In this document: positions 20,877-47,931 of the stretch, piece after piece
Numbering within the stretch: position 1 is the stretch's first letter
Layout of the letters: the number at the start of each line of letters is the position of its first letter
From: Planctomycetota bacterium
Lineage (GTDB): Bacteria; Planctomycetota; UBA1135; UBA2386
Assembly (NCBI GenBank): GCA_046290465.1
Contig: JBKAGP010000001.1
Coordinates: forward strand, 1,568,001-1,632,000
Direction of reading: 5' to 3'
Length of the DNA: 64,000 nt
Position numbers and translations under genes: made by a program
The notes under the pieces: model-generated
Database searches by the model: none
Told to the model about the DNA's origin: nothing
What the model saw: only the letters and a program-made list of their open reading frames with translations

Positions 20877-20891
20877 TGGCATCCCAATTGC
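20877..20891 (+). promoter_or_regulatory. sigma54 promoter of the CIS operon
   Basis: TGGCATCCCAATTGC, near-consensus -24/-12, 15 nt before ATG 20907; a bEBP is encoded at the cluster end. Confidence 0.75.
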
Positions 20892-20906
20892 CTGAGCGCG
20901 CACGGA

Positions 20907-21926
20907 ATGATCACCATCGTGGATGCGCTGAATGTCGCTGCCAACTGGCAGACGCGACAGCCGGATGGCACTCCGGGATCGACGGAACTCACCGCCGCCA
21001 ACGCAACCGGAACATCCTACCTGGGCACCGACCAGACCAGCATGCTGCTGACGGGTTCGACCTCGGCGTTGGACCACAGCATCCGCCGAACCCTGCCCGC
21101 CGTCGATGCTACAGTGTGGCCGGACCTCGCGATCGCAGTCCGCGCCGACCGCGAAGCAACCGGGTCCGATGCATCGCCGTTCTACCTGCGCCTGCGCGTC
21201 GGCAGCGCCGCCGTCGACCTCGACGACCCCGCGAACACCTGGCATCGCTACCTGCCGATCAAGGCCGTTGACACGTGGAACCCACTCCGCCTGTCACTGC
21301 ATGACCTACCGGCGAACATCCGTGACGCCATCACACAGGTCGAGATCACGTGCACGGACGCCAGCCGGGAGTTCGCGTGCCACCTCGACGACCTCAACCT
21401 GGTTCGCGACGAGCTGATCTCCGACGTCGACGCGGCGCTGCACGCCCTGCTGCACAACCAGTTGACCCTCACCGGCCTGGTGCCCGCGCTGGAGCTGGTG
21501 ACCGGCGCCGCGCTGCCCGCGAACCCGCGCCCCGCCTTCGCGATCGCCAACTACAAGTTGGAGTGGAACGAAGAGCGGACCAACCGGCAGCCGTCCTCGA
21601 GCGACTACGTCGACGACGGGTTCCGCCTCCGCCCCGACCGCATCGCCTACGTCGCCCACTATGCGATCCTGGCGCTGGCCGCAACCCGGGCCGAGCAGGC
21701 CGAGATGCTCGACTTCGCGTGCCAGGCCGTTCCGCCGCGCGCCACGCTCGTGGTGAACGACTACCGCGCGGATGCGTGGCACGTGCCAACGCCTTCGTTC
21801 CACGAGACTCCGTGGCCGGCGTTCTATCCGCAGCTCCACGTTGCGGCCATGAACTGGACGGAGATCGGAACCGCAACACCGGTACGTCCTACCCGCAACG
21901 TCCGCATCGAGGCGGAGGCGTTCTAG
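20907..21926 (+). CDS. Pvc16/Afp16 (DUF4255)-like tail terminator/cap with extra N-terminal beta domain
   Basis: LISDVDAALHALL...YVAHYAILALAATRAEQAEMLD; first gene, upstream of sheath. Confidence 0.6.
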   Translation: MITIVDALNVAANWQTRQPDGTPGSTELTAANATGTSYLGTDQTSMLLTGSTSALDHSIRRTLPAVDATVWPDLAIAVRADREATGSDASPFYLRLRVGSAAVDLDDPANTWHRYLPIKAVDTWNPLRLSLHDLPANIRDAITQVEITCTDASREFACHLDDLNLVRDELISDVDAALHALLHNQLTLTGLVPALELVTGAALPANPRPAFAIANYKLEWNEERTNRQPSSSDYVDDGFRLRPDRIAYVAHYAILALAATRAEQAEMLDFACQAVPPRATLVVNDYRADAWHVPTPSFHETPWPAFYPQLHVAAMNWTEIGTATPVRPTRNVRIEAEAF

Positions 21927-21946
21927 CGCGCTCCTGCATCCCACAC

Positions 21947-22327
21947 ATGAGCAAGGACCAACTCGTTCGTTTCCGCAACATGCGCAGGCAACCCGTCGAG
22001 CTCCACTGCCACGATCGCGTACTGGTCGTGCCGCCACTCGGCGAGGTCGAACTGACCGACGAACAGGCCGCGGTCCCGCAGATCGCCTTCCTCATCCGGG
22101 CACGTCACCTGTCCAGCATGGTCGCGAGCTCCACGCCGCCGAAGAAGCCCCCGACCTCCGCCCAGTCGACGCCAGGGCGTGCCGCCACGAAGAAGCCCCG
22201 GAACCGCCGCAAGGCGGAAGCCTCGAAGCCCGCCAAGCCCAACGCGAAAGGCTCTGGGCGCAAGAAGACCACCAAGCCCGAGAAGCCCAAGAAGGGCGCA
22301 GGCCCCAACGCAAGAGCGACTAGCTGA
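21947..22327 (+). CDS. small protein with Lys/Pro/Ala-rich basic tail
   Basis: MSKDQLVRFRN...KKPRNRRKAEASKPAKPNAKGSGRKK. Confidence 0.65.
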   Translation: MSKDQLVRFRNMRRQPVELHCHDRVLVVPPLGEVELTDEQAAVPQIAFLIRARHLSSMVASSTPPKKPPTSAQSTPGRAATKKPRNRRKAEASKPAKPNAKGSGRKKTTKPEKPKKGAGPNARATS

Positions 22328-22387
22328 CTGAGTTCGCGTTCCCGAACGCCCTCGCCCCCACCATTCGAACGCCCAGGAAGCAGAGAC

Positions 22388-24496
22388 ATGACATTCATCG
22401 GTATCAACATCCGCGAGGTCGACGGCTCGGGCTCGCCGACCATCGTTGGTGCAGCAACGTCCATCGCCGGCTTCAACATCCTGACGCAACGGGGCGTGGC
22501 CAACACACCCATCCGCGTGAACAGCTACGAGGAGTTCGCGGAGCGTTTCGGCGGCTACATCGACGGTGCGTTCGGTGCCTATCTACTCCGCGGCTTCTTC
22601 CTGAACGGTGGCGCAACCGCGTATGTCAACCGGGTCGTTTCCAACGACGCCGTAACCGGACACGCCCCCGCCAGCATCACCCTCCAGGACGCGGCCCCGG
22701 CCGATACCCTCGTACTCGAAGCTGGCTACCTGGGACAACCGGACCCCGGCTCGTGGGGCGACCGCCTGCGCGTCGCCGTCACCCACACCGCCACCGCGAC
22801 GACGCGGCTACGCGAAACCGCCGCCGCCACGGTAACGGGAACGGTGGCGCTCGCCGCCGCCACCGACATGAGCGCCTTCGGACCGCTCACCCTTCGGATC
22901 GACGGCGAGACGACCGACACGGTCATCACATTCGAGGCCTCGGACTTTCCGAGCGCCGGCGCCGCCGCGGCAACGCGCGAGGAGATCCGGGATGCGATCA
23001 ACGCGCGTGGCAACCGGGTCGTCGCATCGCTCAACGGCGCCAACAACATCGTGCTGACCTCGACGGGCGAGGTCGCGAGCCTGAGCGGTGGCTGGACTAG
23101 CATCGAAGTGCGGGCGGTAAACGCCGTCCTCGGTTTCGCGGTCGCGCCGGCCGTCTTCGGCACCGCCGCGGTCCCTGCCGGAACGGGCGTTGCCCTGCAC
23201 AGCGTCGAGGGCTTCCAGATCGGAGACGCGATCCGCATTCGCGACACGACCACGCCCGCGAACACGGCCCTGGCGAAGCTGCTGACGGCCAACGAGACCA
23301 CCGGGGCCGTCACCTGGACGACGAACATCGCGGCAATCGCGGGATGGGATCTGCGTGCCATCGTCGTCGAGAACGTGCGCTTCGATCTGGCGATCGGCCT
23401 CGGCGAGCCTGATGGCGTCGTCGAAACGCTCACCGGACTGTCGATGGAGTCGGACATCGCCGACTACGCCGTCGCCCGAATCAACGATCGGATCACCGGG
23501 TCCCGCTACGTGATGGCAACGGACGCGGCCAGCGCCAGCCCGGCCGGTGCGGACCTCCCGGCGGAAACGGCCGGCGAGGTGACGTTCGATCCGGGGCGGG
23601 ACGGAGTGCCGACGGCCCAGGAGTTCATCGGCGACCCGGCGGCGCACACCGGTTTCTCCGCGTTCGACACCTTCGACGTGCAGCTGCTCACCTGCGAACG
23701 CACGGACAGTGGTATCGCACGCGCTGGCATGGACTACTGCGCCAATCGCGGCGACTGCACCTACGTGGGCGCCGTCCCCGAAGGCTATGTCGAGGTCGGC
23801 CAGGCGGGCGCCTACGGCCAGGGTCTGCAGGGCAGCAAGGTCTACGGCGCGCTCTATGGCCCTTGGGTGCGCGTCGTCGATCCGATCGGAGTAGGCGACA
23901 ACCCCGAACGCATCATCCCGCCCGTCGGCCACATCCTCGGCACCTTCGCACGCATCGACACCAACCGCGGCATCTGGAAGGCACCTGCGGGCGACGAGGC
24001 GAATCTGCGCGGCGTGCTCGATGTCACCTACCGGCTCAGCGACGCGGAACACACCGATCTGGTGGAGAACGGCAGCGTCAACGGCATCCGCTGGGTTCCG
24101 CGCTCGGGCATCGTCGTCGATGCGTCGCGAACCCTGAGCACCGATACCCGCTGGCTCTACGTGAACGTGCGACTGCTGTTCAACTTCGTCAAGAGCAGCC
24201 TGCGCGACGGGCTTCGCTGGGTCCGACAGGAACCCAACCGCGACACGCTGTGGAAGACCATCAAGTTCAACAGCGTGACGCCCTTCCTGACCCAGCTGTG
24301 GCGGCAAGGCGCCTTCGGCACCGGATCTCCCGAGGAGGTCTTCACGGTCACCATCGACGCGTCCAACAACCCGCCGTCAGAAGTCGACATCGGCAACCTC
24401 AACGTCGAGGTGCTGTTCTACCCGTCGCGTCCGGCAGAAAAGATCATCATCACCGTGGGGCAGCAGCAGAGCGGTGCGACCGCGACGGAGAGCTGA
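22388..24496 (+). CDS. contractile tail sheath protein
   Basis: GFFLNGGATAYVNRV, ALYGPWV, RGIWKAPAG, YVNVRLL, EPN...LW, YPSRPAEKI. Confidence 0.95.
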   Translation: MTFIGINIREVDGSGSPTIVGAATSIAGFNILTQRGVANTPIRVNSYEEFAERFGGYIDGAFGAYLLRGFFLNGGATAYVNRVVSNDAVTGHAPASITLQDAAPADTLVLEAGYLGQPDPGSWGDRLRVAVTHTATATTRLRETAAATVTGTVALAAATDMSAFGPLTLRIDGETTDTVITFEASDFPSAGAAAATREEIRDAINARGNRVVASLNGANNIVLTSTGEVASLSGGWTSIEVRAVNAVLGFAVAPAVFGTAAVPAGTGVALHSVEGFQIGDAIRIRDTTTPANTALAKLLTANETTGAVTWTTNIAAIAGWDLRAIVVENVRFDLAIGLGEPDGVVETLTGLSMESDIADYAVARINDRITGSRYVMATDAASASPAGADLPAETAGEVTFDPGRDGVPTAQEFIGDPAAHTGFSAFDTFDVQLLTCERTDSGIARAGMDYCANRGDCTYVGAVPEGYVEVGQAGAYGQGLQGSKVYGALYGPWVRVVDPIGVGDNPERIIPPVGHILGTFARIDTNRGIWKAPAGDEANLRGVLDVTYRLSDAEHTDLVENGSVNGIRWVPRSGIVVDASRTLSTDTRWLYVNVRLLFNFVKSSLRDGLRWVRQEPNRDTLWKTIKFNSVTPFLTQLWRQGAFGTGSPEEVFTVTIDASNNPPSEVDIGNLNVEVLFYPSRPAEKIIITVGQQQSGATATES

Positions 24497-24544: not shown

Positions 24545-25015
24545 ATGCCACAAGAAGGCGACATCTGGGCAGGTTATCAAACCAGCGAATTCGTGTTCGT
24601 CATCGACGGGATGGAGAGCCCGGGAGTCACCAAGATTTCGGGGCTGACGGAGTTCAACATCGAGGTCATCGAACAGCCCGACGGCGGCAGCATGACCGTG
24701 CACAAGCTCGCCGGAAACAAGGTGACCTACGACACGTTGACCGTCGAGCGCCGCATGGATGGCAGCCCGGAGGATCAGCGCTTCAAGGACTGGCTCGAAG
24801 AGACCTGGAAGCTCAACCGTGCAACGCAGGGCGGCTCGAACGTTCGCAAGGACGGAATGATCATCAAGCGTCACCGCGGCGAAGACGTACTGACGTTCGC
24901 CTTCTACGGCGCATGGATCAAGTCGTCGAAGTTTTCGGACTTCGAAGCCGGCACCACGAACCTCCTGACCCAAACGCTCGAACTCGAGCACGCCGGCCTC
25001 GAGCGCGTCGCCTGA
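24545..25015 (+). CDS. tail tube protein (gp19/Afp1-like)
   Basis: FVFVIDG...KISGL...KLAGNKVTYDTLTVER...RKDGMI...GAW...LELEHAGLER. Confidence 0.9.
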   Translation: MPQEGDIWAGYQTSEFVFVIDGMESPGVTKISGLTEFNIEVIEQPDGGSMTVHKLAGNKVTYDTLTVERRMDGSPEDQRFKDWLEETWKLNRATQGGSNVRKDGMIIKRHRGEDVLTFAFYGAWIKSSKFSDFEAGTTNLLTQTLELEHAGLERVA

Positions 25016-25064: not shown

Positions 25065-25856
25065 ATGACCGCAACTACCCCAAGCATCACGACCAACGCC
25101 CGCGAATACGCGTTCACCCTGCCCATCGGGGTGCAGACCGAAGACGGACAACTGCACCGCGACGGCGCACTTCGCAAGATGAACGGGCACGACGAGGCGA
25201 TCCTCGCCGACCCCCGCTACCAGCGAAACGGCGGCCAGCTCGTGACCGAACTGCTCCATAGCTGCGTGACCGGCATCAGCGGCATCGAGCAACTGACGAA
25301 GTCGACGTTCGCGTCGATGTACTCGGCGGATCGCAACTTCCTGCTGCTCAAGATCCGTAGCTTCACGTTCGGAGCCGAGCTGCAGGCCAACTACACGTGC
25401 CCCTCCTGCGGAAACACGATGCAGGTGTACGAGAACCTCGAAGAGCTGCCCGTTCGCGAGCTCGCGGGTGGCGAACTGCCGGATCGCATCGAGGTCGAAC
25501 TGGTCGATGGCTACGTCGATCGCGACAACAAGACGCACACGCAGCTGGAGCTGCGGCTGCCGACCGGTGCAGACGAACAGGCTGTCGCCGCGCAGATGCG
25601 GAAGAACGCGTCGCTCGGCAAGAACGCGCTGCTCGCGCGCTGCATCGTGCGGTTCAGCGACCTCGAGCAGAAGCGCGTCAAGGCGCTGGGCCCGCGAATC
25701 ATGTCGGACCTGACCATGAGCGACCGGCGCTTGATCGATCGCTCACTCAACGCCGGCGCACCGGGGATCGACCTGATCCGTGATCACGAGTGCGTGCACT
25801 GCGGCCACGAGTTCAAAGCAAGCATGGACATGACCCATTTTTTGGAACTGGAGTAG
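25065..25856 (+). CDS. tail assembly chaperone-like protein (internal duplication, two CxxC)
   Basis: FTLPIG...ADRNFLLLKIR...CPSCG; second half ELVDGY...SDRRLI...CVHCG; follows tube gene. Confidence 0.75.
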   Translation: MTATTPSITTNAREYAFTLPIGVQTEDGQLHRDGALRKMNGHDEAILADPRYQRNGGQLVTELLHSCVTGISGIEQLTKSTFASMYSADRNFLLLKIRSFTFGAELQANYTCPSCGNTMQVYENLEELPVRELAGGELPDRIEVELVDGYVDRDNKTHTQLELRLPTGADEQAVAAQMRKNASLGKNALLARCIVRFSDLEQKRVKALGPRIMSDLTMSDRRLIDRSLNAGAPGIDLIRDHECVHCGHEFKASMDMTHFLELE

Positions 25857-25897
25857 GTGAGGAAGGCCTCCAGGAGGAGGTCTTCTTCCTCGCTTAT
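25838..25897 (+). promoter_or_regulatory. programmed -1 frameshift signal (T TTT TTG + hairpin)
   Basis: In-frame heptamer 25838-25844; stem-loop 25853-25897. Confidence 0.75.
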
Positions 25898-26023
25898 CAC
25901 CTCCACTGGTCGTGGTCCGAAGTCATGGCGTTGACCAGCGGCGATCGCCGTCGCTACGTCGACCTGCTCGTCAAGCAGATCGAGCGGGAGAACGCCCAGA
26001 TCGAGGCCGCCGGAAAACGTTGA
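25838..26023 (+). CDS. DUF6760-like chaperone extension, probably expressed by -1 frameshift
   Basis: EEVFFLAYHLHWSWSEVMAL..DRRRYV in the -1 frame, no good start of its own. Confidence 0.7.
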   Translation, partial: FFGTGVGEEGLQEEVFFLAYHLHWSWSEVMALTSGDRRRYVDLLVKQIERENAQIEAAGKR

Positions 26024-27859: not shown

Positions 27860-29878
27860 ATGCCGCTCGATCTCACGGCAGCCGTAGCAGCCTTCGCCGA
27901 CCGCTTCGCCCTGCAGCGACGCGGGATCGCGGATGCGTTCAAGGTGATCGAGAAGTGGCTGAAGGCGCGCAAGAAGCAGGCGGAGGCCCTCGAACTGGCC
28001 AGCCGCCGGTACCCGGCGATCGACTTTCACTTCGGCGGTCAGGTCATGCTGCGCCTCGACCGCAGCCAGCACCGGACCCTGGCCCGAGGAGAGCCGAGCG
28101 ACTTCGTGCGATCCCTGGAACGCGGCGGACGGGAGTTTGTCGACGGCATCGCCTACGTCGGACGCGCGGCGAGCCAGGAGTGGCTGCTACCCAACCTCGC
28201 GACGCGGCTACGAAGGATCTCCGACCTGGTGGTTGCCTCGATGGCCCGCTTCGCCACCAGCCGACTGGCCAGCGACACCTTCGACCCCGATCGCCGCACG
28301 GCATCGGACAGCATCGGGCTCGCCGCCCGCGGCTGGCGCGCGCTCGCGGAGAGCAATCGCCAGCTGCAGCTGTTCGTCGTTCGCCTGCACCTAGCCAAGT
28401 TCCTCGTCCAGCTCGACGAGACGCCGCAGGAAGAGCTGGAGCGCAAGAAGCGCGCGGCGTCCTCTCCCCCCAAACCATCCGTGAGCTTCGCCGACCGGCT
28501 CGGCGAAGCAGCGCGCTACCTGACGGCGGGCGTGTTGCTGCTGCCGATCCTGCCGCAGTACCTGCAGCGGCTGTTCGAGGCAGTCTGGCTGCGTGGCCGG
28601 CTGACCTTGCTCGACGAGTTCGCGGGATACGAACGGCGGGTCTTCCGCTTCCGTACCCGGATCGTCGACACGCTCTTCCGGGAACTGCCCAAACTGGCCA
28701 CCAAGGCCTTCCGCTTCGTGCTCGCCGCGAAGTTCGTTATCAGCTCGAACCTCGACTACTTCGTTTCGTTCGCGCGCATTTACGGCTCGGTCGTGCTGCG
28801 AGAGGTCCGCCGGTTCTCGCACGAGCTGCAGCAGTACCTCGAGTTCTTCCGCTCCCTGGTCGAAACCACGCGCCGGATCCTCGAGCGGGTGATGAACTTC
28901 GACCTGATGCCGTTCCTGATCGCGCCGCTCGGTCTGCCGGGCGCCATCCTGCACGCACTCGGCCACATACCCAGACTCACCATTGGGGATCTGGTCGACA
29001 CCGCCGGCCACATCGTGCGAATCCGAGCCCGCGACAGCCTGACGAACTTCATCATGGCGGTGCGCATCGCCATGCTCGCCGGCGGCCTCGCAACCCAGCA
29101 GCTGTATTGGCGGCACGTCAAGGCCAAGCTCGACCTGCTGCAGGCCATCGTCAGCATCCTGTTCCAGGCGCCGGCGCCGTACCCGGCGGAAACGCGCCGG
29201 CCCAGGCTTCCGAATCGATTCCCCAACCTGTTCAACGCTTTCTTCGGGCCGGCCGGCCGTTCGTTCGTGCGCCACATGGAGGCGATGGGACGCGGTCTCG
29301 CGGCGTCGGTCGGGACCACGCTACGCGCCGGGGAACGGGTGCTGCGCGACCTCGCGCTGCTGTTCGACCACCAGGCCGTAGTCGCCTCGCTGCTCGTCGA
29401 CCCGGCTGTACTGCGTGCGTTGGATTCACGCAGCGCCGCCACGAGCGATCGGCTGTTCGGGGACCAGATCCGGGAGCTGCGCCAACGTGTCGCCACCGCC
29501 AGAGGCGACACGGTCGCCGGCAGCTTCGAACGTTGGCTCGTGAGCAGCGGGTTCGAGATGGTCGCCGCCGCCATCCCGGTCTACCTGAGTGAGATGCAGC
29601 GGTTCTGGCGCCGCGAGGCCGCCGTCGGTGCGGAACCGACCGTCGAACTGTCGGAGCTCGAACGCATGCAGCCGGTGGCCCGGCAACGGCTCGCCCGCCG
29701 CCTCGGTCTCGGCCGCGTGCGACTGGATGCCGTGACCATCGACGCCCAGGACCGCGAGCTCAGCAGTGACCTGGTCGCGCGCATTACGGACCGATTCCAA
29801 ACCGTCATCCGCACTGCATACCGAGTAGGCCGCGCGCGCCTGCTCTCCGTGCAGGGCAACCAGGCAGGAGCGACCTAG
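27860..29878 (+). CDS. long helical protein 2 (tape-measure position)
   Basis: 672 aa; FERWLVSSG motif; C-terminal LDAVTIDA. Confidence 0.7.
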   Translation: MPLDLTAAVAAFADRFALQRRGIADAFKVIEKWLKARKKQAEALELASRRYPAIDFHFGGQVMLRLDRSQHRTLARGEPSDFVRSLERGGREFVDGIAYVGRAASQEWLLPNLATRLRRISDLVVASMARFATSRLASDTFDPDRRTASDSIGLAARGWRALAESNRQLQLFVVRLHLAKFLVQLDETPQEELERKKRAASSPPKPSVSFADRLGEAARYLTAGVLLLPILPQYLQRLFEAVWLRGRLTLLDEFAGYERRVFRFRTRIVDTLFRELPKLATKAFRFVLAAKFVISSNLDYFVSFARIYGSVVLREVRRFSHELQQYLEFFRSLVETTRRILERVMNFDLMPFLIAPLGLPGAILHALGHIPRLTIGDLVDTAGHIVRIRARDSLTNFIMAVRIAMLAGGLATQQLYWRHVKAKLDLLQAIVSILFQAPAPYPAETRRPRLPNRFPNLFNAFFGPAGRSFVRHMEAMGRGLAASVGTTLRAGERVLRDLALLFDHQAVVASLLVDPAVLRALDSRSAATSDRLFGDQIRELRQRVATARGDTVAGSFERWLVSSGFEMVAAAIPVYLSEMQRFWRREAAVGAEPTVELSELERMQPVARQRLARRLGLGRVRLDAVTIDAQDRELSSDLVARITDRFQTVIRTAYRVGRARLLSVQGNQAGAT

Positions 29879-40400: not shown

Positions 40401-41507
40401 GGCTGGCAGGTCATCAGCTCCGCCAGCGGCTTGCCGAGCGACGACGTTCGCGGCGCGCACGGCGCCTGGTCCGCACACCGCGAACTCGCGGGCGACGGCA
40501 CGTCCGCGCGGGAGCCGTTCGCCGTGGTCGACGACACCAATCAGGTCTGGCTGCTGTACTCCGAGGCCGAGGCCTTCGGCGACGCAGACGACCGCTGGTC
40601 CCTACGACAACGACGGTTCGACCCGGGGACCCGCGTCTGGAGCGCCGACCAGGCCGTCACGACGCTCCCGGCGGGCACGGTCGCCGACCGCGAACCGACT
40701 GCGTTGGCGCGCCCGGCCAACGGCCCGCTGGTGACGTTCGTCTCGACACGCCAAGGTGGCTCGCACCTGTGGCAGGTCGCGCTCTCCGCGACGGGCACTC
40801 CTGGCGCGCCCGGCCGCATCTTCGCCACATCCGCGCGTTCGCGGCATCCGGCGGCCGTCGCCCTTGCCGACGGAACCAGCTGGATTCTGCAGCGCAGCGA
40901 CACCAGCTTGCCACTCGCGCAGCTCGGTCGACGCAGCACGGCCGACTCCGTCTACTCGGATCTGCCGCGCAGTGAACTGCTTCCCGAAGGGTCAACGCTA
41001 CGGCACTTCGCGGGCACGGCGACGCCGGTACTCGCAGACGTCGACCGCAACGCAATGCATCGCGCCTGGGGCGACCTCGGCGCCTACACCTCCGTCAAAC
41101 CGGACGGCGGCCTCACCGCCCCCTACGAGGCCGACGACTACCACACCCGACACACCGTCGGACTGTACCTGCTCGCGCCGCCCGGCTCCGCCGGCCTGAC
41201 GAAGTCCAACATCGACCGCATGCGGGCACTCCTCGCCGAGGTGATCCCCGTCAACATGCGGGTCGTGTTGATCTTCGTCCCGGGGCTGCACGTCGAGCGG
41301 GTCTACGGCAACGGCATCGAGCCCACCGATGGCTACGCCGACGACTATCCCTTTGTCGACGTCTACGACGGCCCCACGGACACCGATGCCGTGGCCTTCG
41401 TCGACTGGTTCCTGCTGTTTTCCAACACCGCAGGCCACGTATCCGCGGATGCCGTCGATCCGGCGTCCCTGCGTGGTCGCACCTTCCGCCCAGGTCTCGG
41501 TCCATGA
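37434..41507 (+). CDS. tail protein I/gp7-like baseplate protein with inserted domains and beta-propellers
   Basis: LYDRLP...LRRFL...AVRLYRRVGSIPG; GLPSDD/AVDxxGxVWVAT repeats. Confidence 0.75.
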   Translation: MRIIDFQAEPDIVGRRVRISWTFVPEAGESIADAPQVRLRRKLHDFDFPTMPPPDPWLVFDSAAFPPAPVPGAIRVTSLPRLEDRDGAEREVAVPVSVAVPVAGTDRWLEVARRTIVTRYGADGLPVWRRIEVLDNGPEPFSLQPGTTYYYQLTGNLGSTPAKDVRDTAAVGEGHALGRMLYDRLPQVLKHGDTAQRPDASGTDTVPEMSRGQGQLRRFLDNFGAGLDSMRSSADHLGSLKQIDDVDARFLGAMGRSIGWTFDRRDDIPLHRNELKNAVRLYRRVGSIPGMRAIIERYAGWSSRASEFAQQVWRANNGASYHVLASWQVGGEWQAIDAVATQLGFGPGNRTALGAPGAAATLTGTVLEPFALPPSATLALATDGRPTRAVRFTDSDFVNPGATTAAELAAVLDRRLPDVIVRANAGALEIATRRIGIEARLDVRVEAAAPVSIADGPAERPATFVDRNGRLRIFATAAVADETEGIGQHAIAASQRQRVRILCHAHRDWWDEQVVAGVPGRGQACPAAVELPDGRLWLVWVDADADDSRLRGQLGVDAPQLPPRISGQLQEPFELAVGSSLRIEGSLPVETYTVLAADFVDPTQATAVEVVAAMNAQLATVTASVQPDGSIALLGTDAGPDAWRGIDLSQSTCARVLGLAEPDRAAQGSWSHEPLWSTPFFVAGSNARSQADCHAVVDPAGGVRLFRSRHRDRRWHVCATHWDDRRLLVTDSGLGTNAAGAGWTAETIADGMPSDDCRAVAVDCDGDVWVATAAGVGRRRPDGTWTTIDLGSGLASDDLRDCAFDASGAIWLAGAMGADRIDTAGAITNFALPDGLPSLDCRAIAVDSEDRVWIATAAGLATRSTDGAWSVIATPELPGLDVVQLAFDESGSVWVATTNGLATRDVRGTWTQPETGWTGAVLRDVAVGPDGVIWVTSDLGLAQRETDGSWTRWDTASGLPSNDCRRLSFTDDGQLEVATPAGLAVRTANGWQVISSASGLPSDDVRGAHGAWSAHRELAGDGTSAREPFAVVDDTNQVWLLYSEAEAFGDADDRWSLRQRRFDPGTRVWSADQAVTTLPAGTVADREPTALARPANGPLVTFVSTRQGGSHLWQVALSATGTPGAPGRIFATSARSRHPAAVALADGTSWILQRSDTSLPLAQLGRRSTADSVYSDLPRSELLPEGSTLRHFAGTATPVLADVDRNAMHRAWGDLGAYTSVKPDGGLTAPYEADDYHTRHTVGLYLLAPPGSAGLTKSNIDRMRALLAEVIPVNMRVVLIFVPGLHVERVYGNGIEPTDGYADDYPFVDVYDGPTDTDAVAFVDWFLLFSNTAGHVSADAVDPASLRGRTFRPGLGP

Positions 41508-42052
41508 TCCATCCCAGCGAGCAGCCGACATCCGGACTGCGTGGCAGCTACCGCGACATCCTCCGTGCCCCAGACGGACGCCCCATCTACGAAAGACCGT
41601 GGCGCCCCAACGCGATCGTGGCGGACTGTCGCCGCGTGCTGTCCGCCTTCGTCAACGGCACCGGCCCGGCTGCCCAAGGCATCCAAGGCCTGTGGATCGG
41701 GGCTGGCCTCGATGCCTGGGACAGCGTGCCCCCACCTCCGCCCACGGGCACCGAGACCGTGCTCGTCGACCCGAACCCGTTCCTAGTTCCGGTGGCCGCG
41801 ATGACCCTCGAGTTCCTGTCGCCGACCAACACGGTGTCGGCAACGCCAACGAACCGTCTGCAGATCTCGATCCCGATCGGACCGGGCCAGCCACCCTGGC
41901 CCGACGGCAACCACGCGACCGGCAATCTACGCGAGTTCGGCCTCGCAGCGCAGCTCGGCGGCAACCTCGTGCTCCTCAACTACGTCATCCACCCCGTCAT
42001 CGCCAAGGACCCCGCGAGCACGCTCGATCGGACGATCTGGCTGGAGTTCTGA
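41504..42052 (+). CDS. tail-collar/fibre-base-like protein
   Basis: GNLREFGL...NYVIHPVIAKD...RTIWLEF. Confidence 0.55.
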   Translation: MIHPSEQPTSGLRGSYRDILRAPDGRPIYERPWRPNAIVADCRRVLSAFVNGTGPAAQGIQGLWIGAGLDAWDSVPPPPPTGTETVLVDPNPFLVPVAAMTLEFLSPTNTVSATPTNRLQISIPIGPGQPPWPDGNHATGNLREFGLAAQLGGNLVLLNYVIHPVIAKDPASTLDRTIWLEF

Positions 42053-42072: not shown

Positions 42073-44037
42073 ATGGCCATCATCTCCACGAACACGTTTG
42101 ACCCGCTGCAGCGCTACATCGGCGTGCGGTTGCAGCAGGGCGTCCCGATCGTCGATGCGGACTGGAACGAGTTCGACGACATCCACAAATTCGAACTGCG
42201 CGCCTACCTCAGATGGTTCGTCGGCGACGGCGTCCCCGAAGGCAACGACGCGTTCCGGCTGGTCGCGACCGACACCGCGGATGACTTCACGATCTCCGCG
42301 GGCGTTGCCGCCGGACCACCGGGCGACAACATCGTCACGGGCCTGCGGCACGTCGGACGCTGCATCGTCGATGGCAGGGACGTGCTGATCGAAACCGATA
42401 TCGCCTTCCGTGCCCAAAGTCTGCATGCGAGCCAGCCCAGCGCTGCCGCAGTGGCCGCGGCCTGGGGCGTGCCGACGGTTGCCGAGCTGCCGGCCGTCGA
42501 CGGGACGGTGCTCCTGTACGTCGACGTGTGGGAACGACTCGTCACCCCGAGCGAAGACCCCGGCCTCGTGTTTGCGGGTCTCGGAACGGAGAGCTGCGCA
42601 CGCCTGCGTCGGGAGTGGGTGCTGCGGTGGCGCGCAGCCACCGACGTGCCGCAGTCCGGAGACCCCGACCACCTGCAGGGCCACAGCTACTACGCCATCG
42701 CCCGCATCACCCGCCGCGCGGCCGACCCGGTCGTGCGCGAGGGCGACTGCGATGACCTCCGCGAACGCCGCCTGCTGACGCCGCCGGCAACCCTGATCGA
42801 AGACCTGCTGGATACGGACCCGATTCGCTACCGCCAGGGCCTCGACCGTCCAGCCATCTCCCTGCGAACGGCGATCAACGCGCTGCTTCGCGGCGAGCTT
42901 CCGGCGACCGACGAGTACGCTCTCGCTCCGGTGACCACGGCCCGCGACGACACTTCGTACTCGTGGTTCTTCAACGCTATCGGCGACCCGGTGGTGTTCT
43001 GGCACTCCGAGCGCTCCGGCGGACCGCGCCAGGTGTTCGCCGCAACCTGGCCGCAGGACGACCTCGCCGCCGTGACCGCGGCAGCTCCGGTGCAGGTGAC
43101 GACCGGCGCAACGGCGCACCGGTTGCCGCACGCGGTGCAGTTGCCGAACAACGACTACCTGGTCGTATACGAAACGGGATCGACCGACATCCATTATCGC
43201 CGCGCCGACCAGCTGAGCGGGCTGCCGGCAGCGACGGAGGAAGCGGTGCAGGCCACGGCAGACACGGACCGCCACCCGTTCGTCGTGCTCGCCGGCAACC
43301 AGGTCGTGTTCTTCTGGAACCGGAACGGCGCCCCGGACGAGTGGCTGTACCGCCGTCGCCAGTACGTGCCCTCGTGGAACGAGGCCGACGGCGCCTGGCT
43401 CGACGCCGCGCCTACCAGCCTGTCGGGCCTGCCGGCGGACAATGCCACCAGCACGGTCGGCGAGTTCCATGCGGTCGTCGACTCTTGGGACGCGATCTGG
43501 ACGGCCTTCCGAACGTCGACCGACACCATCGGCATCGTACGCCTCGACCCGGCGACGAACACACTCGAGAACTGGGGCAACCTCGAACTGGAAGGCAGCG
43601 TCGGTTCGACGAACGAAGAACCGTTCCTGATCCTGGACGGCGACCTCGGAGTCTGGATCGTCTGGCGCGACCAGAACGGCGTGCACCACGCGCGCTGGGA
43701 TCGTGCCACCGACACCTGGAGTGCGCCGTCGTTGGCGCCGGGATCGGGGCCAGGCGACAGCTCGCCGGTCGGGCTGCTCGATCACGAGAACGCGCTCTGG
43801 CTCGTATGGGTACAGGACGTCGCCGGTCATGAAAGCATCCTCACGATGCGACGCAATCCGACTACGGGGATCTGGGGGAGCGCACGTCAGGTCGTCACTG
43901 CAGAGGGCAGCGACGACACCCCGTACGCACTCCGCGGCCAGGCCGGCACCATCTGGTTGTTCTGGCGCAGCAACCGCGCCGGCTCCCTGCTGAACCACTA
44001 CGACCTCTACGCCAAACAATTCACGACCGCGATCTAA
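42073..44037 (+). CDS. DUF6519-like fibre/receptor-binding protein with C-terminal propeller
   Basis: TFDPLQRYIGVRLQQGVPIVDADWNE; LYVDVWER.VT..EDP. Confidence 0.8.
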   Translation: MAIISTNTFDPLQRYIGVRLQQGVPIVDADWNEFDDIHKFELRAYLRWFVGDGVPEGNDAFRLVATDTADDFTISAGVAAGPPGDNIVTGLRHVGRCIVDGRDVLIETDIAFRAQSLHASQPSAAAVAAAWGVPTVAELPAVDGTVLLYVDVWERLVTPSEDPGLVFAGLGTESCARLRREWVLRWRAATDVPQSGDPDHLQGHSYYAIARITRRAADPVVREGDCDDLRERRLLTPPATLIEDLLDTDPIRYRQGLDRPAISLRTAINALLRGELPATDEYALAPVTTARDDTSYSWFFNAIGDPVVFWHSERSGGPRQVFAATWPQDDLAAVTAAAPVQVTTGATAHRLPHAVQLPNNDYLVVYETGSTDIHYRRADQLSGLPAATEEAVQATADTDRHPFVVLAGNQVVFFWNRNGAPDEWLYRRRQYVPSWNEADGAWLDAAPTSLSGLPADNATSTVGEFHAVVDSWDAIWTAFRTSTDTIGIVRLDPATNTLENWGNLELEGSVGSTNEEPFLILDGDLGVWIVWRDQNGVHHARWDRATDTWSAPSLAPGSGPGDSSPVGLLDHENALWLVWVQDVAGHESILTMRRNPTTGIWGSARQVVTAEGSDDTPYALRGQAGTIWLFWRSNRAGSLLNHYDLYAKQFTTAI

Positions 44038-44072
44038 CGGGACGCGCTTCCCTTACCCAGCGAGACCATCTC

Positions 44073-46745
44073 ATGCCGAACCCAATGATTGCCCCGGTTG
44101 CCGACGGCCACGCCGTCGGGGATTCGAACACCGTATTCATCGACCTGATGCTGGTGGATGTCGACGACGAAGCATCGTTCACGATCGACTGTCCGACGAC
44201 GGCCTCGGTCTCGATCGAACGCGCGCCGACCAGCTGGGCGAGCACCGGCACGTCGCTGTTGTCCGCCGGAACGTGGAGCGGCTCGGCGGTGACGTTCGAA
44301 GGTTGGCAGGCGAGCATCAGCGTCGCCGGCACCGAGGCCACGATCACGGTCAGCCAGGTCACGACTTCGCCCACCTCGGACATGGTCCGCGTGCGGGTCT
44401 CGGAACTCGACGCCGCCGCGTGCACGGCAACGGAGGGCGGCAACGCGACGATCGAACGGGTGCTGGCCGACCCCAGTCTCACCGGCCTGGGTTCGAGCGG
44501 CCCCCCGCGCGAGAAGTCGACCGTCACGCTGCTCGGCACCGTCGACTACACCCAGTTCACGACGGGTAGCGCCTCGCTCTCCGCGCTGCCCCCCATCGGC
44601 GCGAACTGGTTGCGGGATCCATCGGATCCGCTGGCTTTCTCGCTGGGAGCGACCACGTTTGCCGGAGTCGGCGGCGCGCCGGCCCAGGCCGACTTTGTAG
44701 TCCCCGGGCTCTACGCGGACGTCGACACGGCCTTCGAACTGCGCGGCTACTGTGACCTCGACGCCTCGGGGACGTACGATCTCGGGGAACCGGAGAACAG
44801 CGAGCCATTCTCGCTCGAAGTCAGCCCGACCGACTTCCACATCCTACTCGTCATCGACCGATCCGGGAGCATGTCGGGCAGCCTCCCCGGGGTCACCCCC
44901 GGCGGCTCGACCAAATGGGAAGAGGCGAAGGCTGCCGCGCACCTGTGGACGGACTTCATGTTGGCGTTCCGAAGCGGCGACGGTCACCGCATGGGGATCG
45001 TGACGTTCGAACACGGAACCTGTGGCTGGGGCACCCAGTCCGCTTCGGGTGAAGTCGATCTGCGGATCCCGCCTCCGGGCGCCCTCGCCCCGCTATCCAC
45101 CTTCGACCTCGATGCGCTGGACCTCGGCGAGCCGGCATCGTGCACGCCGATCGGGGAATCGCTGGTCTTCGCAATGGACAAGCTGCTGGCCGAGTCGCCG
45201 AATCAGGACGAACGCCGCGTCATCGTTCTGCTGACCGACGGCTACCAAAACTCCGGGACGGTCACCATCAAGTCCACTCCACCGGCAAGCGGCGTCACCA
45301 CCTGGGCCAGCGAGCGCACCCAGGGTGCCCGGCAGATCATCAGCAACAACCTCGATCTCTACACCATCGCGGTCGGCCAGGAGACCGAAGAGGACCTACT
45401 CAATGACCTGCCCAACGACCCGGTCGGAGGTGCGGGCTTCTACCACCTGACCAACGACTCCTCCGACCTCCTCGAGACGTATGCGGCCATGCTCGGCAAC
45501 TCTCTGGATGCCGAGTCTCTGAGCCCGACCAACACGCCGGCCGAAACCGATCCGGGCTCGGCCACCGAGACCGCAGATGCGAAATACGTGCAGGTCAACC
45601 AGGGCGAGACGCGGCTGGCCGTCGCCATGGTTCGCAGCGATTCATCGTTCAAGGCACGGCTCGCCTATCGTGACCAGGGCAGCTCGGGGCCGTTCACGCC
45701 GATCGGATCGGGTCCGGACGTGGTGATCCACGAGCGACTCCGACACACGATGGCCATCATCAACCTGTCGGGCCTGTTCGCCGACCCAGCCGAGCCGGCC
45801 AAGGAATGGCGCCTGCAGCTACGCACCGATAGCGGCACGTCGCAGATCCTGGACGGCAAGGTCGTCGCGATGGTCGACCTGCACGTCAAGGCCCAGGTCT
45901 CGTTCGATCGCTCCTCGTACCGAACCGGCGAGCCGATCCAGCTGCAGTGCTCGCTGTCCGCAGGAGCGCGACCGCTCCCCGACGCGGAGGTCACGGTCGA
46001 GGTAGCCGCCCCGGGAGAAGGCCTGGGCACGTTCCTGGCCACCAACTCCGGGCGATACAAACCCGTGGACCAGGACGGGGATGTCAAGCCGCCCAAGCAG
46101 CTGATGTTCTCCACGCTGCTCAAGAGCCTGCAGCTGCCGGGACTGGCGGTGGTCAACCCGGTGTTCGCCGACGGCACCAACCGCCTGCACGACGACGGCG
46201 CGCACGGCGACGGCGCGGCCGACGACGGCGTGTATGCCAACAGCATCGCCGCGACCGACAAGGAGGGCACCTACCGGTTCCGCATCCGCGTCCGCGGTGA
46301 GGTCTCACCGAACAATCGTTTCGATCGACTCTTCGTGCGATCGACCTGGGTCGGAGTGCGAACCGACGTCGCAGCATCTCCTGTGACGATGGTCACGCTG
46401 CCGGCACCCGGACCCGGGCTCGTTGCCATCCAGGTCTTGGTGACACCGAAGAGCGCGACCGGCGAACTGGTCGGACCGTTCCGCGCCGACGAAGTCACCT
46501 TCCAGAGCAGCGCCGGCAGCTGGCAGGGACAGGTCGAGAGCCGCCTCGACGGCTCCTACTCCTACGTTTTGCACTACCCGGAAGGTCAACAACCGGTCGT
46601 GCAAGTCACGGTAGGCGACCAGCCACTCGGCCCACTCGTCGTCGGCGGCGAGGACAGCGGCGATCTGTGTGACCGCCACGGCTGCATCGGGCTCTTTTTC
46701 GTAGCAATACGCTGCCTCTTCCGCAAGCTCCTCAGAGGCAAGTAG
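44073..46745 (+). CDS. vWA domain protein with choice-of-anchor X-like and Ig-like domains
   Basis: MIDAS DRSGSM, TPIG, LLTDG; LHDDGAHGDGAADDGVY; hydrophobic/basic C-terminus. Confidence 0.85.
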   Translation: MPNPMIAPVADGHAVGDSNTVFIDLMLVDVDDEASFTIDCPTTASVSIERAPTSWASTGTSLLSAGTWSGSAVTFEGWQASISVAGTEATITVSQVTTSPTSDMVRVRVSELDAAACTATEGGNATIERVLADPSLTGLGSSGPPREKSTVTLLGTVDYTQFTTGSASLSALPPIGANWLRDPSDPLAFSLGATTFAGVGGAPAQADFVVPGLYADVDTAFELRGYCDLDASGTYDLGEPENSEPFSLEVSPTDFHILLVIDRSGSMSGSLPGVTPGGSTKWEEAKAAAHLWTDFMLAFRSGDGHRMGIVTFEHGTCGWGTQSASGEVDLRIPPPGALAPLSTFDLDALDLGEPASCTPIGESLVFAMDKLLAESPNQDERRVIVLLTDGYQNSGTVTIKSTPPASGVTTWASERTQGARQIISNNLDLYTIAVGQETEEDLLNDLPNDPVGGAGFYHLTNDSSDLLETYAAMLGNSLDAESLSPTNTPAETDPGSATETADAKYVQVNQGETRLAVAMVRSDSSFKARLAYRDQGSSGPFTPIGSGPDVVIHERLRHTMAIINLSGLFADPAEPAKEWRLQLRTDSGTSQILDGKVVAMVDLHVKAQVSFDRSSYRTGEPIQLQCSLSAGARPLPDAEVTVEVAAPGEGLGTFLATNSGRYKPVDQDGDVKPPKQLMFSTLLKSLQLPGLAVVNPVFADGTNRLHDDGAHGDGAADDGVYANSIAATDKEGTYRFRIRVRGEVSPNNRFDRLFVRSTWVGVRTDVAASPVTMVTLPAPGPGLVAIQVLVTPKSATGELVGPFRADEVTFQSSAGSWQGQVESRLDGSYSYVLHYPEGQQPVVQVTVGDQPLGPLVVGGEDSGDLCDRHGCIGLFFVAIRCLFRKLLRGK

Positions 46746-46950
46746 AGAAACCCGTTCCGAGCCTCGGTTCCTTCGGTCAGTTCTTCACGCTCCTGCCGCT
46801 CCTTCCAGCGTTGCATCCCTATTGCTCCCATCTACGATGCAAGTAAGTGCGTCACGCATCGCGTGTAGGGAATCAGGAGTACCAGTGCGACCGCCGAAGC
46901 TTAGCGAAGGAGCGAGATCTCGGATCGGACACCGGGACTACCGTGTGTGG

Positions 46951-47931
46951 ATGGATCGTTTCATCACGAGCGATCCGGCCACCCTCGACCTGCTCGACGT
47001 CCTCGATCGCGTCGCCGATACCGACGCCTCCGTGTTGATCACCGGAGAGTCCGGCACCGGCAAGGAGTTGCTGGCCCGCGGCATCCACGAGGCCAGTTCG
47101 CGTTCCAAACACGCCTGGGTCGCGATGAACTGCGGCGCGGTTCCAGTGGGGCTGCACGAGTCGGAGCTGTTCGGACACGTGGCCGGCGCGTTCACCGGCG
47201 CTTCCCAGAGCAAGCCCGGCCGGTTCGCCACCGCGGACGGCGGCACGATCTTCCTCGACGAGGTCGGCGAGATGCCGAAGCCGATGCAGACCGGACTCCT
47301 GCGAGTGCTGCAGTCCGGCGAGTTCTCCCCCATCGGAGAGGCGAAGACGACGAACTGCGACGTCCGGGTCGTATCGGCGACGAACCGCGACCTGCCGGTG
47401 CTGGTATCCGACGGTAGATTCCGCCTCGACCTCTACCACCGACTCAACCTGATCGAGATCAAGGTCCCAGCGCTGCGCCATCGCCGCGCCGACATCCCCT
47501 TGCTTGCCAACCACTTCCTCGAAAAGTACGCGACCCGCTATCAGCGACGGGTCTCGATTGGCGAGAGCTTCTTCGATGCCCTGCTGGAGCGAACGCTTCC
47601 GGGAAATGCCCGCGAGCTGGAGAACATCGTCCGTCGCGCCGTGCTCGTGTGCCGCACGAGTTGCCTGGGGCGCAACGATCTCCCACCGGAGAAGCCCAGC
47701 CAGGCGGCGGAACCTGCCGACCCGCCCCCGACAGAGCGAACGTTCCACGAGGAGAAGGCAAAGGTCATCGCCGAGTTCGAACGCCAGTTCCTGACGTCCA
47801 TCCTGCGCAAGAACGCCGGCATCGTCAGGCATGCGGCAACGGCCTGTGGCCTCAGCGAGCGCAACTTCCACGCGAAGCTGGCGCAGTACAGGATCACGAG
47901 CAAGGACTTCCGCGGCGCCGGCACGCACTAA
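46951..47931 (+). CDS. sigma54-dependent activator (bEBP) without N-terminal sensor
   Basis: GESGTGKE, ESELFGH..GAFTGA, FLDEVGE, FR.DLYHRLN, PGNAREL, C-terminal HTH. Confidence 0.93.
   Translation: MDRFITSDPATLDLLDVLDRVADTDASVLITGESGTGKELLARGIHEASSRSKHAWVAMNCGAVPVGLHESELFGHVAGAFTGASQSKPGRFATADGGTIFLDEVGEMPKPMQTGLLRVLQSGEFSPIGEAKTTNCDVRVVSATNRDLPVLVSDGRFRLDLYHRLNLIEIKVPALRHRRADIPLLANHFLEKYATRYQRRVSIGESFFDALLERTLPGNARELENIVRRAVLVCRTSCLGRNDLPPEKPSQAAEPADPPPTERTFHEEKAKVIAEFERQFLTSILRKNAGIVRHAATACGLSERNFHAKLAQYRITSKDFRGAGTH

Follow-up and report, generated by a model that had tools for sequence, protein, structure and literature searches.

What kind of contractile injection system (CIS) does a planctomycete encode when its genes resemble those of extracellular CIS (eCIS) but are arranged like those of a phage tail, and how could such a particle be assembled and armed with no recognizable loading ATPase? 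This question is raised by the locus at positions 20877–47931 of a 64,000-nucleotide stretch of contig JBKAGP010000001.1 (positions 1,568,001 to 1,632,000, forward strand; GenBank assembly GCA_046290465.1, Planctomycetota bacterium), here called the window. In the original prediction, made from the sequence alone, the locus was seen as a distinct subtype lying between R-tailocins and eCIS. We found that it is one complete, operon-like CIS module, and that its place is within eCIS lineage II, beside the Streptomyces type, rather than between the two groups. We consider it probable that the locus belongs to lineage II, most likely as a member of the catalogued but experimentally untouched subtype IIb of the database dbeCIS with DUF6519 (eBAP5) fibres, and that it works in the manner proposed below.

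Genes were called from third-position G+C content (GC3) and frame switches; the raw lists of open reading frames (ORFs) were crowded with shadow frames. Families were sought in Pfam, NCBIfam and PHROGs, and AAA and tube genes were counted in six-frame searches of the genome. The locus is approximately 65–70% G+C throughout. Between 20907 and 47931 it contains 22 reading frames, all on the plus strand, made up of 21 genes and the stretch by which the chaperone gene is extended in the −1 frame, and the junctions between them are short or overlapping. The features, with window coordinates and E-values, are as follows.

20877–20891, plus strand: sigma-54-type −24/−12 promoter-like element TGGCATCCCAATTGC, 16 nt upstream of the g01 ATG; putative function
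20907–21926, plus strand: g01, 339 aa, predicted cap/terminator (Afp16/Pvc16-like) with an N-terminal beta-sandwich resembling a carbohydrate-binding module (CBM)
21947–22327, plus strand: g02, 126 aa, with a Lys/Pro-rich tail, called at a GC3 frame switch
22388–24496, plus strand: sheath protein, 702 aa (PF17482, 2.9e-9; PF04984, 1.7e-6)
24545–25015, plus strand: inner tube protein, gp19/Afp1-like (PF06841, 2e-16)
25065–25856, plus strand: g05, tail assembly chaperone of the T4 gp26/P2 gpE type, short form of 263 aa (PF12322, T4_baseplate, 1e-12)
25838–26023, plus strand: slippery heptamer T_TTT_TTG (25838–25844) and 59-codon −1 frame extension with DUF6760, giving a predicted long form of 319 aa
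26027–27853, plus strand: g06, 608 aa, tape-measure-like helical protein with hydrophobic Gly-rich segments
27860–29878, plus strand: g07, 672 aa, tape-measure-like paralogue
29880–31736, plus strand: g08, 618 aa, tape-measure-like paralogue with an N-terminal glycine-zipper motif
31751–32488, plus strand: g09, 245 aa, tube initiator, Afp7/CIS_tube-like (PF19266, CIS_tube, 2.4e-8)
32505–32819, plus strand: g10, 104 aa, LysM baseplate protein (phrog_7145, 'baseplate wedge subunit', 3.8e-10)
32819–33940, plus strand: g11, 373 aa, stand-alone baseplate hub, gp27-like and equivalent to the N-terminal half of VgrG
33937–34740, plus strand: g12, 267 aa, spike with a gp5/gpV oligonucleotide/oligosaccharide-binding (OB) fold, a beta-helix and a C-terminal HxH motif (PF04717, Phage_base_V, 9.3e-15)
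34801–35154, plus strand: g13, 117 aa, Pro/Leu-rich repeat protein (MSKCSFP...ACPLD)
35198–35446, plus strand: g14, 82 aa, small conserved protein with no family match in Pfam or PHROGs
35459–35827, plus strand: gp25-like sheath initiator or wedge protein (PF04965, 4.2e-14)
35833–37437, plus strand: baseplate J/Afp11-like wedge protein, single copy (TIGR02243, 2.5e-66, 224.6 bits against a cut-off of 155.8; PF04865)
37434–41507, plus strand: g17, 1357 aa, giant baseplate protein with a P2 gpI/Afp12-like domain and a beta-propeller
41504–42052, plus strand: g18, 182 aa, conserved protein preceding the fibre (phrog_5417, unknown function, 8.4e-7)
42073–44037, plus strand: g19, 654 aa, tail fibre with an N-terminal DUF6519 (eBAP5) baseplate-anchor domain (PF20129, 1.2e-7)
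44073–46745, plus strand: g20, 890 aa, VWA-domain protein with a choice-of-anchor X domain, the last conserved gene of the module (PF00092, 2.9e-8; PF13519; NF041940, 1.4e-11)
46822–47931, plus strand: g21, 369 aa, sigma-54 enhancer-binding activator without a sensor domain, PspF-like (PF00158, Sigma54_activat, 4.2e-64)

The sheath places the locus among eCIS. Its best PDB matches were 8bky (1e-51) and 8bl4 (4e-50), followed by 9ezm (8e-49). Grouped with 8bky and 8bl4 are the further entries 9gtp and 9gts, which belong to the paper on the CIS of Streptomyces coelicolor (CIS-Sc), and 9ezm is cited by a paper on a haloarchaeal CIS. The 16 PDB matches at E≤0.01 were sheaths from the Streptomyces, haloarchaeal, Photorhabdus virulence cassette (PVC), Afp, AlgoCIS, Salmonella eCIS and thylakoid-anchored CIS (tCIS) systems together with one cyanophage sheath, and none was named pyocin, P2 or T4. 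Among 50,697 phage records no sheath covered 80% or more of the window sheath, and the best, from Bacillus phage BCD7, was 33.6% identical over 58% of the length. Sheath homologues that share 56–67% identity over 99–100% of the length number in the hundreds, and those named come from Acidobacteria, myxobacteria, Nitrospirillum, Chloroflexi and actinomycetes. The best PDB match of the J protein was also from CIS-Sc (9gtp_1K, 4.7e-22).

The cap required a family profile. On its own, g01 matched no Pfam family and missed the threshold of Pvc16_N (DUF4255), which was reached by only one of 23 g01 family members, at 0.0011. A profile made from the 23 members matched, over profile positions 171–311, the Pvc16 N-terminal domain protein of the CIS-Sc cap (9gts_0A, 5e-9). 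When the AlphaFold2 model of g01 (pLDDT 92.2, pTM 0.85) was compared with solved structures using Foldseek, its C-terminal domain matched the caps 9gts_0A, 9qgn_A, 6j0f_A and 7b5i_AA (1.5e-5 to 3.5e-5), which come from CIS-Sc, two PVCs and the Anabaena tCIS, and its N-terminal part matched CBM11 and CBM4 modules (approximately 4e-6). From the profile match and the agreement of the model with four solved caps, g01 is a divergent Pvc16-like cap with an extra CBM-like domain.

The gene content listed in the original prediction was borne out in every item, namely the Pvc16-like cap, the Afp7-like initiator, the DUF6760- and DUF6519-containing genes, a single tube gene (one of three PF06841 genes found in the genome), a separate hub and HxH spike, and a frameshifted chaperone, for which the slip site and a conserved −1 frame peptide provide the sequence evidence. 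Measured against the eight eCIS core genes, which include Afp15 and Afp16 according to the available text of Chen et al. 2019 (PMC6899500), the locus has the tube (Afp1/5), sheath (Afp2–4), Afp7, Afp8, Afp9, Afp11 and Afp16 and does not have Afp15. Of the features of an R-tailocin or a P2 tail, a predicted −1 frameshift chaperone 5′ of the tape measure is present; the PDB search (E≤0.01) gave no P2- or R-pyocin-related sheath, and no lysis family, such as a linked holin–endolysin pair would give, turned up when ORFs of the locus and flanks were scanned. Pfam and NCBIfam scans of the locus ORFs likewise gave no family for the membrane complex (TssJLM), TssK or the ClpV recycling ATPase of a type VI secretion system (T6SS), and the TssE and VgrG models gave weak, sub-threshold matches only.

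The gene order is not peculiar to the window, as it is also seen in an annotated Streptomyces-type locus on a Kitasatospora plasmid. That locus consists of a DUF4255 cap, sheath, tube, a 129-aa gene, a DUF6760 gene, a 1243-aa DUF4157 protein, further tube-like genes, fused VgrG, gp25 and J, and so shares with the window the order cap, sheath, tube, small gene, DUF6760, long gene, baseplate. It differs in having a fused VgrG and a canonical DUF4255 cap. The intermediate position between R-tailocins and eCIS is thus not supported, given the eCIS-type sheath matches, the lack of any phage sheath with at least 80% coverage, the order of the Kitasatospora locus and the split hub and spike already described for subtypes IIa–c. 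What stands of the proposed distinct subtype is a distinct, conserved and self-contained lineage with no linked ATPase, PAAR or DUF4157.

Within lineage II, the published features point to one subtype. In the available text of Chen et al. 2019 (PMC6899500), afp8 is split in subtypes IIa–c and afp11 is single in Ia, Ib, IIb and IId. The key to dbeCIS IIb given there is a split afp8, a single afp11, no afp10 (PAAR), divergent afp12/13, two to three subtype-specific unknown genes and an afp6 homologue. The window likewise has a split g11/g12, one J/TIGR02243 gene and no PAAR in the locus. Its g17, with a TIGR02242 domain, and g19, the DUF6519 fibre, correspond to the divergent afp12/13, the three genes g06–g08, which have no Pfam match, to the unknown genes, and g14 or g05 might be what was called afp6. 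The IIb taxa in Table S3 of the same paper (Corallococcus coralloides, Lysobacter antibioticus, Sphingomonas, Sorangium and Streptomyces) overlap those of the loci related to the window; the table's entries include C. coralloides DSM 2259 (CP003389) and L. antibioticus 76 (CP011129). As the split afp8, single afp11, missing PAAR and divergent afp12/13 single out IIb and the taxa overlap, the locus is most likely IIb. The fibre, too, is of a published group, and a match to an already described subtype, an outcome that the original prediction had set against itself, has probably been found.

DUF6519 has been defined as eBAP5, the baseplate-anchor domain of eCIS tail fibres, and is there reported, in the portion of the paper available, as 'correlated with Actinobacteriota' (Nat Commun 2026, PMC12923769). 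As in that group, DUF6519 is N-terminal in g19 and the gene lies 3′ of the baseplate genes; in this case the host is a probable planctomycete, and the sheath groups with those of Lysobacter, Rubrivivax and Sphingomonas. The planctomycete origin, also part of the original prediction, is plausible, with 13 PSD1 genes in the genome compared with none in any of 14 control genomes.

A scan of species-representative genomes with the sheath yielded 75 related loci, of which 74 had a sheath match, 66 a g01 match (tblastn) and 45 a g08 match. In 44 of the 45 g08-bearing loci ten genes are retained and colinear: g01, sheath, tube, chaperone, g06, g08, initiator, LysM, hub and spike. Extended stretches were compared for five carriers (Sorangium, Nitrospirillum, Lysobacter, Streptomyces and a Planctomycetota metagenome-assembled genome, MAG). 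All five have g17, g18, the DUF6519 gene and the VWA-like gene, and gp25 and J are present in all four whose stretch covers them. The DUF6519 gene begins approximately 19.5 kb 3′ of the sheath start in all five (18.3 kb in Streptomyces), and the VWA gene is followed by unrelated housekeeping genes. Hosts of the lineage include Streptomyces, myxobacteria, Lysobacter, Sphingomonas, Acidobacteriota, Chloroflexota and Planctomycetota. The window locus is otherwise an ordinary, intact member of a widespread and strongly conserved lineage.

In a quick maximum-likelihood tree of 63 sheaths, the window grouped with Lysobacter, Rubrivivax and Sphingomonas with a support value (SH-aLRT) of 98, and the nine phylum labels required 15 changes where the minimum is eight. 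When 301 genomes from the phylum of the window were sampled, 27 had DUF6760, whereas it was found in none of three from its family and in none of 12 others from its order. Together with a patch of mobile elements adjoining the module, the tree and this patchy occurrence suggest that the locus was acquired horizontally.

In P2, slipping by −1 on TTTTTTG yields two forms of the tail chaperone, the hub (gpD-like) and spike (gpV-like, with an HxH apex) are separate, and there is no ATPase. The chaperone gene of the window, g05, lies directly 5′ of the tape-measure-like genes and, besides PF12322, matched Phage_TAC_7 (1.6e-5, 25.3 bits against a cut-off of 25) and two PHROGs annotated 'tail assembly chaperone' (phrog_150 and phrog_508). 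Its 3′ end reads CAT TTT TTG GAA CTG GAG TAG, placing the slippery heptamer five codons 5′ of the stop, and the −1 frame extension matched DUF6760 (PF20546, 4.6e-8, 33.5 bits against a cut-off of 27). An in-frame slippery heptamer near the stop is present in 59 of 72 related chaperone genes, and in 57 of these it is T6 with any one of the four bases (A, G, T or C) after it; in the related loci the frequency of T6 runs is 0.10 per kb. The −1 frame peptide following the slip site is also conserved in the related genes (...EVFFLAYHLHWSW...ERR.YV.LL.EQIERENA...). Codon −5 is TTT in 57 of 73 chaperone genes, compared with 39 of the 385 Phe codons at their other positions. As TTT is otherwise rare among their Phe codons, its use at codon −5 in genomes of 70% G+C indicates selection on the nucleotides at the predicted slip site. 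A programmed −1 frameshift, leading to a short 263-aa and a long 319-aa form of the chaperone, is therefore very likely on this sequence evidence.

The three genes that follow the chaperone are each read as tape-measure-like, by prediction. None matched a Pfam or PHROG family. The g06 family profile matched FtbJ (9j1k_J, three chains, 3e-6) and the tape measure protein CD1366 (8v3w_B, 0.0067), and the g07/g08 profile found only apolipoprotein-like and designed helical-bundle structures in the PDB. The g07 and g08 families are paralogues (hhalign probability 99.2%, E=1.3e-19, 508 columns), and g08 and g06 share a segment of 47 columns (96.8%). Both g06 and g08 contain several hydrophobic, glycine-rich segments, with hydrophobic 19-mers at residues 99–166, 214–243 and 303–322 of g06. 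The AlphaFold2 model of g08 is almost all helix, including one helix of 148 residues, at a pLDDT of only 57. Its ESM Atlas neighbours were viral clusters, one of which consists entirely (100%) of PF25671 T4_Tape_measure proteins (score 0.93, 140 shared features), and this we treat as a lead only. Matches to g06 and g07 were found by tblastn in 47 and 36 of the 75 loci, respectively, and sheath-positive loci without a g08 match mostly have one long ORF of approximately 520–830 codons in the same interval. The lengths of g06, g07 and g08 are moderately correlated (r 0.40–0.60 in 21 loci, not corrected for kinship), which is too weak a correlation to support a joint ruler.

At the centre of the baseplate, the hub and spike are separate genes, as had been predicted. 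The profile of g11 matched the N-terminal halves of the VgrG chains 7aef_q and 9rce_F (7e-8), 9gtr_q (1.2e-5) and phi92 gp137 (2.9e-5), which represent AlgoCIS, a Salmonella eCIS, CIS-Sc and phage phi92. The HxH motif at the apex of P2 gpV-type spikes binds iron. In g12, which ends ...LTHTHATAMGPSGPP, the HxH is an HTH tripeptide near the C-terminus. Of 38 spikes readable to the end, 22 have the motif, all from loci with the group of three tape-measure-like genes, and the 16 without it are all from loci that have no g08 match.

The Pfam LysM match of g10 is weak (0.0015, 18.9 bits, below the cut-off of 20.9). The TIGR02242 match of g17 (7e-9) is below its cut-off, and the protein also contains Reg_prop repeats and matched the propellers 3v9f and 4a2l in the PDB. 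In the five extended loci g17 is 35–38% identical, near full length in four, with the Streptomyces stretch beginning inside the gene; g18 is 52–63% identical in all five, and its profile had no PDB match below E=0.1. A g20 homologue lies 3′ of the fibre gene in all five, and the VWA domain was detected in three of four homologues scanned. For g14, tblastn found matches of 38–51% identity in three of the four extended loci that cover the position, and the fourth has a look-alike ORF.

Our proposal for the working of the system is as follows. Expression would be switched on by g21 at the sigma-54 promoter presumed to lie 5′ of g01. By homology, the hub, HxH spike, LysM protein, gp25, J and g17 would build a baseplate carrying the DUF6519 fibres and perhaps the VWA protein. 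The gp26/gpE-type chaperone, in its short form and the frameshifted DUF6760 long form suggested by sequence and comparison, would hold g06–g08. The initiator g09, the single tube protein and the sheath would then polymerize, and the CBM-bearing g01 would close the particle. Assembly and arming would proceed without an Afp15-type AAA+ ATPase, and no PAAR or DUF4157 cargo would be carried. The action of such a system would therefore most likely be tailocin-like, with fibre-guided binding, contraction, puncture by a metal-tipped spike and ejection of the hydrophobic tape-measure-like proteins.

Several points weigh against this proposal or against the placement in IIb. The closest solved relative, CIS-Sc, works inside the cytoplasm according to the available text of Casu et al. 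(PMC10066040), which argues against assuming an extracellular mode. The locus is probably IIb by the feature key in the text of Chen et al. and by taxon overlap, rather than by its position in the dbeCIS reference tree. Moreover, that text, in the part available, lists Afp15 for 'lineages I and II' and does not except IIb (PMC6899500), and IIb loci might be annotated there with an ATPase. A Pvc16_N match was absent genome-wide from 19 of 40 carrier genomes, including a complete Corallococcus chromosome and three Lysobacter genomes, but many of the 40 are incomplete and 19 is an upper estimate of true absence. With respect to the frameshift, a GTG at 25790 could start a DUF6760 ORF independently, and DUF6760 is annotated as a separate gene in the Kitasatospora locus. 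Finally, a sigma-54-type motif 5′ of g01 was clear in few relatives in a crude scan of 35 loci (the best had 10, 9 and 8 of the 11 consensus positions) and, with so few good matches, we make no claim of a promoter conserved across the related loci.

In the Kitasatospora plasmid locus (L097, 16010–16548), the RefSeq DUF6760 gene encodes 50 aa, and its CTG start overlaps the stop of the preceding 129-aa gene.

A bolder version of the proposal, which we put forward tentatively and regard as rather unlikely in its entirety, is that this is an eCIS that dispenses with the AAA+ ATPase altogether. In it, g06–g08 would form a heterotrimeric ruler on the frameshifted chaperone and be ejected as a membrane-active payload, and the whole would be a cargo-free 'tailocin' that arose in eCIS lineage II and spread over many phyla, each time under a dedicated activator appropriate to the host, either a sigma-54 bacterial enhancer-binding protein (bEBP) or a regulator of the Streptomyces antibiotic regulatory protein (SARP)/BTAD type.

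The alternative that survives best, though we still consider it unlikely, is a cytoplasmic or cell-bound CIS like that of S. coelicolor, which would fire in or at the membrane of the producer, causing stress-induced cell death or contact-dependent attack, and would never be released. The sheath, J and cap all match CIS-Sc best, the next sheath match is to a haloarchaeal CIS described as contact-dependent, and scans of ORFs in the locus and on either side of it detected no holin or endolysin. CIS-Sc, a subtype IId system, is cytoplasmic, and in the available text it has two tube genes and no conventional tail fibre (Casu et al. 2023, PMC10066040). The window, in contrast, encodes a fibre with DUF6519, a VWA protein and a baseplate protein with a beta-propeller. 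It also differs in having one tube gene, separate genes for hub and spike, an HxH motif at the spike apex, three genes of the tape-measure-like kind and a sheath of 702 aa where the CIS-Sc chains are 534 and 539 residues. In addition, a gene resembling a glycoside hydrolase family 25 (GH25) muramidase lies approximately 1.7 kb 5′ of the cap gene in seven Streptomyces loci (L031, L032, L033 and others). This candidate release factor hints at lysis-based release in those loci; nothing comparable is present in the window.

The tailocin-like working remains our preferred reading. Translated in six frames, the locus gave no match to PF00004 (AAA) at E≤0.001, and six-frame and genome-wide family searches found no Afp15-type ATPase, PAAR or DUF4157 there, as predicted. 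The sole AAA+ protein of the locus is g21, whose translation contains a Walker A motif, GAFTGA and a C-terminal helix-turn-helix, identifying it as a sigma-54 enhancer-binding protein and not Afp15. An AAA match just past the right end of the window was considered as a candidate Afp15 and rejected, as it is an NtrC-type activator. That gene, on the minus strand at C1:1631878–1634178, encodes a receiver domain, GAFTGA and a helix-turn-helix, with an acidic ADDP/AGDK repeat as its C-terminal tail.

The original prediction had suggested searching the rest of the genome, and the missing genes were indeed found there, but they belong to another system. The genome has a single match each to Pvc16_N, PAAR and DUF4157/eCIS_core, and all three lie at 974–1002.5 kb (PAAR at 979.6 kb), in a second, canonical and complete eCIS at C1:974000–1002500, outside the window and 590 kb away. 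It comprises a Pvc16_N cap, a 952-aa sheath, two gp19 tubes, CIS_tube, a fused VgrG, gp25, J, PAAR, a 1659-aa CIS_TMP, an eCIS_core (DUF4157) protein with a weak, sub-threshold match to a non-specific endonuclease, and a divergently transcribed AAA ATPase (PF00004, 1.3e-23). As this system is complete and the proteins common to both loci are only 21–29% identical, the genes in question are not those of the window locus.

A dependence of the locus in trans on the Afp15-like ATPase, PAAR and DUF4157 effector of the second eCIS is consequently improbable. It is favoured by the presence in the same genome of a full eCIS with an AAA ATPase, PAAR and an eCIS_core-endonuclease protein. However, apart from the self-sufficiency of the second locus and the low identities, the 19 carrier genomes that have no Pvc16_N cap anywhere speak against it, and the window locus has its own HxH apex, chaperone and tape-measure set and appears to lack nothing structural. 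Homologues of the ATPase, cap, PAAR region, TMP and DUF4157 protein of the second locus were not detected by tblastn (E≤1e-4) in the window and 85 loci, and the conserved upstream ORFs of 49 loci included no ATPase-like cluster.

An origin as the tail module of a prophage in decay, or as an R-type tailocin that descends from P2 and was domesticated recently, would account for the order sheath, tube, chaperone, tape measure, for the TTTTTTG slip site, separate hub and HxH spike, and perhaps for the mobile-element patch just 3′ (48.5–59 kb), but is highly improbable given that all genes are intact with no capsid, terminase or lysis (holin/endolysin) family among the window ORFs scanned, that 44 colinear loci are spread across many phyla with sheaths 56–67% identical, that phage and PDB searches returned no close phage, pyocin, P2 or T4 sheath, that the cap, CIS_tube initiator and TIGR02243 J are of the eCIS type, and that the same order occurs in a Streptomyces-type CIS locus.

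The preferred reading is of an eCIS of lineage II that works without the ATPase, unlike the Afp and PVC systems (subtype Ia). With these the window shares the sheath, tube, Afp7-like initiator, LysM protein, gp25, J, Afp16-type cap and, as far as its genes indicate, a headless tail-like particle; its sheath matched 6j0b and 6rao (1e-22 to 1e-26), and its cap fold 6j0f and 9qgn. The Afp and PVC loci have their own ATPase and PAAR, several paralogues of the sheath and the tube, and genes for toxins, all of which are missing from the window locus. In the available text of PMC11495950, the Afp15/Pvc15 ATPase loads signal-tagged cargo. eCIS are being engineered as protein-delivery devices, and this ATPase is treated as a core gene. 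A metagenome survey discards clusters that have a fibre and a tape measure but no ATPase, as phage or R-tailocin (PMC12210884). As the lineage appears to build a full eCIS-type particle without the ATPase, filters based on it may undercount CIS. The lineage is also a natural test case for what the ATPase is needed for, and several cultured carriers exist, among them a Lysobacter isolate from soil, Nitrospirillum iridis DSM 22198, Corallococcus coralloides and Streptomyces xylophagus.

Searches of titles and abstracts (CIS with chaperone, frameshift and eCIS; tailocin with the carrier genera) found no description of the lineage, the papers searched contained no mention of 'DUF6760', and the portion of the PhageTAILor preprint available contained nothing relevant. 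The available text of Chen et al. (PMC6899500) mentions neither a frameshift in the chaperone, nor that the three 'unknown' genes are tape-measure-like, nor the extra domain of the cap. The features that we did not find in print are the frameshift into DUF6760 and its conservation, the fact that the 'unknown' genes are tape-measure-like and triplicated, the cap with its CBM, the exchange of activators (sigma-54 bEBP or SARP/BTAD) between host types, and the evidence that Afp15 is not linked and, in about half of the carrier genomes, not present at all.

Regulators are the only recurrent genes found 5′ of g01. In 49 loci a BTAD (SARP-type) cluster was present in 22 and a sigma-54 activator (bEBP) cluster in nine. 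In the window, the element TGGCAT-N5-TTGC starts exactly at 20877, the 5′ end given in the original prediction. It is the single exact match to TGGCAY-N5-TTGC in the 64 kb, where 0.14 would be expected and at least one match occurred in 11 of 100 shuffles. The genome encodes two RpoN proteins (rpoN genes). No inverted repeat suitable as a site for the activator was found 5′ of the promoter-like motif. A second sequence, TTGCATCCCTATTGC at 46811–46825, is the same as the element at 20877 at 13 of 15 positions and overlaps the annotated TTG start of g21. It does not have the GG of the sigma-54 −24 box, and could be a site for a shared regulator or a chance occurrence.

Two further small genes of the module, like g14, had no family match in Pfam or PHROGs. 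For g02, which lies between the cap and sheath genes and has a histone-H1-like, Lys/Pro/Ala-rich tail, no family was found at E≤0.001, and tblastn matches were found in 10 of 75 loci. For g13, a gene at the same position with conserved ends and internal repeats (GC3 0.76–0.93) was found in all five loci examined (window, Sorangium, Nitrospirillum, Lysobacter and the Planctomycetota MAG), and one ESM Atlas cluster of 55 unnamed bacterial proteins was matched (0.91). It lies directly 3′ of the spike gene in all five Gram-negative-type representatives (the window, L088–L090 and L092), with one Cys at each end of the protein; the Streptomyces loci have no room for it at this position.

The ORFs at 13.4–20.5 kb and two downstream ORFs have no counterpart beside the related loci and are thus outside the system. 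Beyond the module, and abutting it, is a patch resembling mobile and defence elements (48500–59200, G+C 0.60). This patch contains IS21 IstB and helix-turn-helix fragments, a DNA methylase, a truncated integrase N-terminus, a SMODS nucleotidyltransferase-like ORF (52718–54175), a large serine recombinase (57438–59183) and a weak, sub-threshold Rep_trans match.

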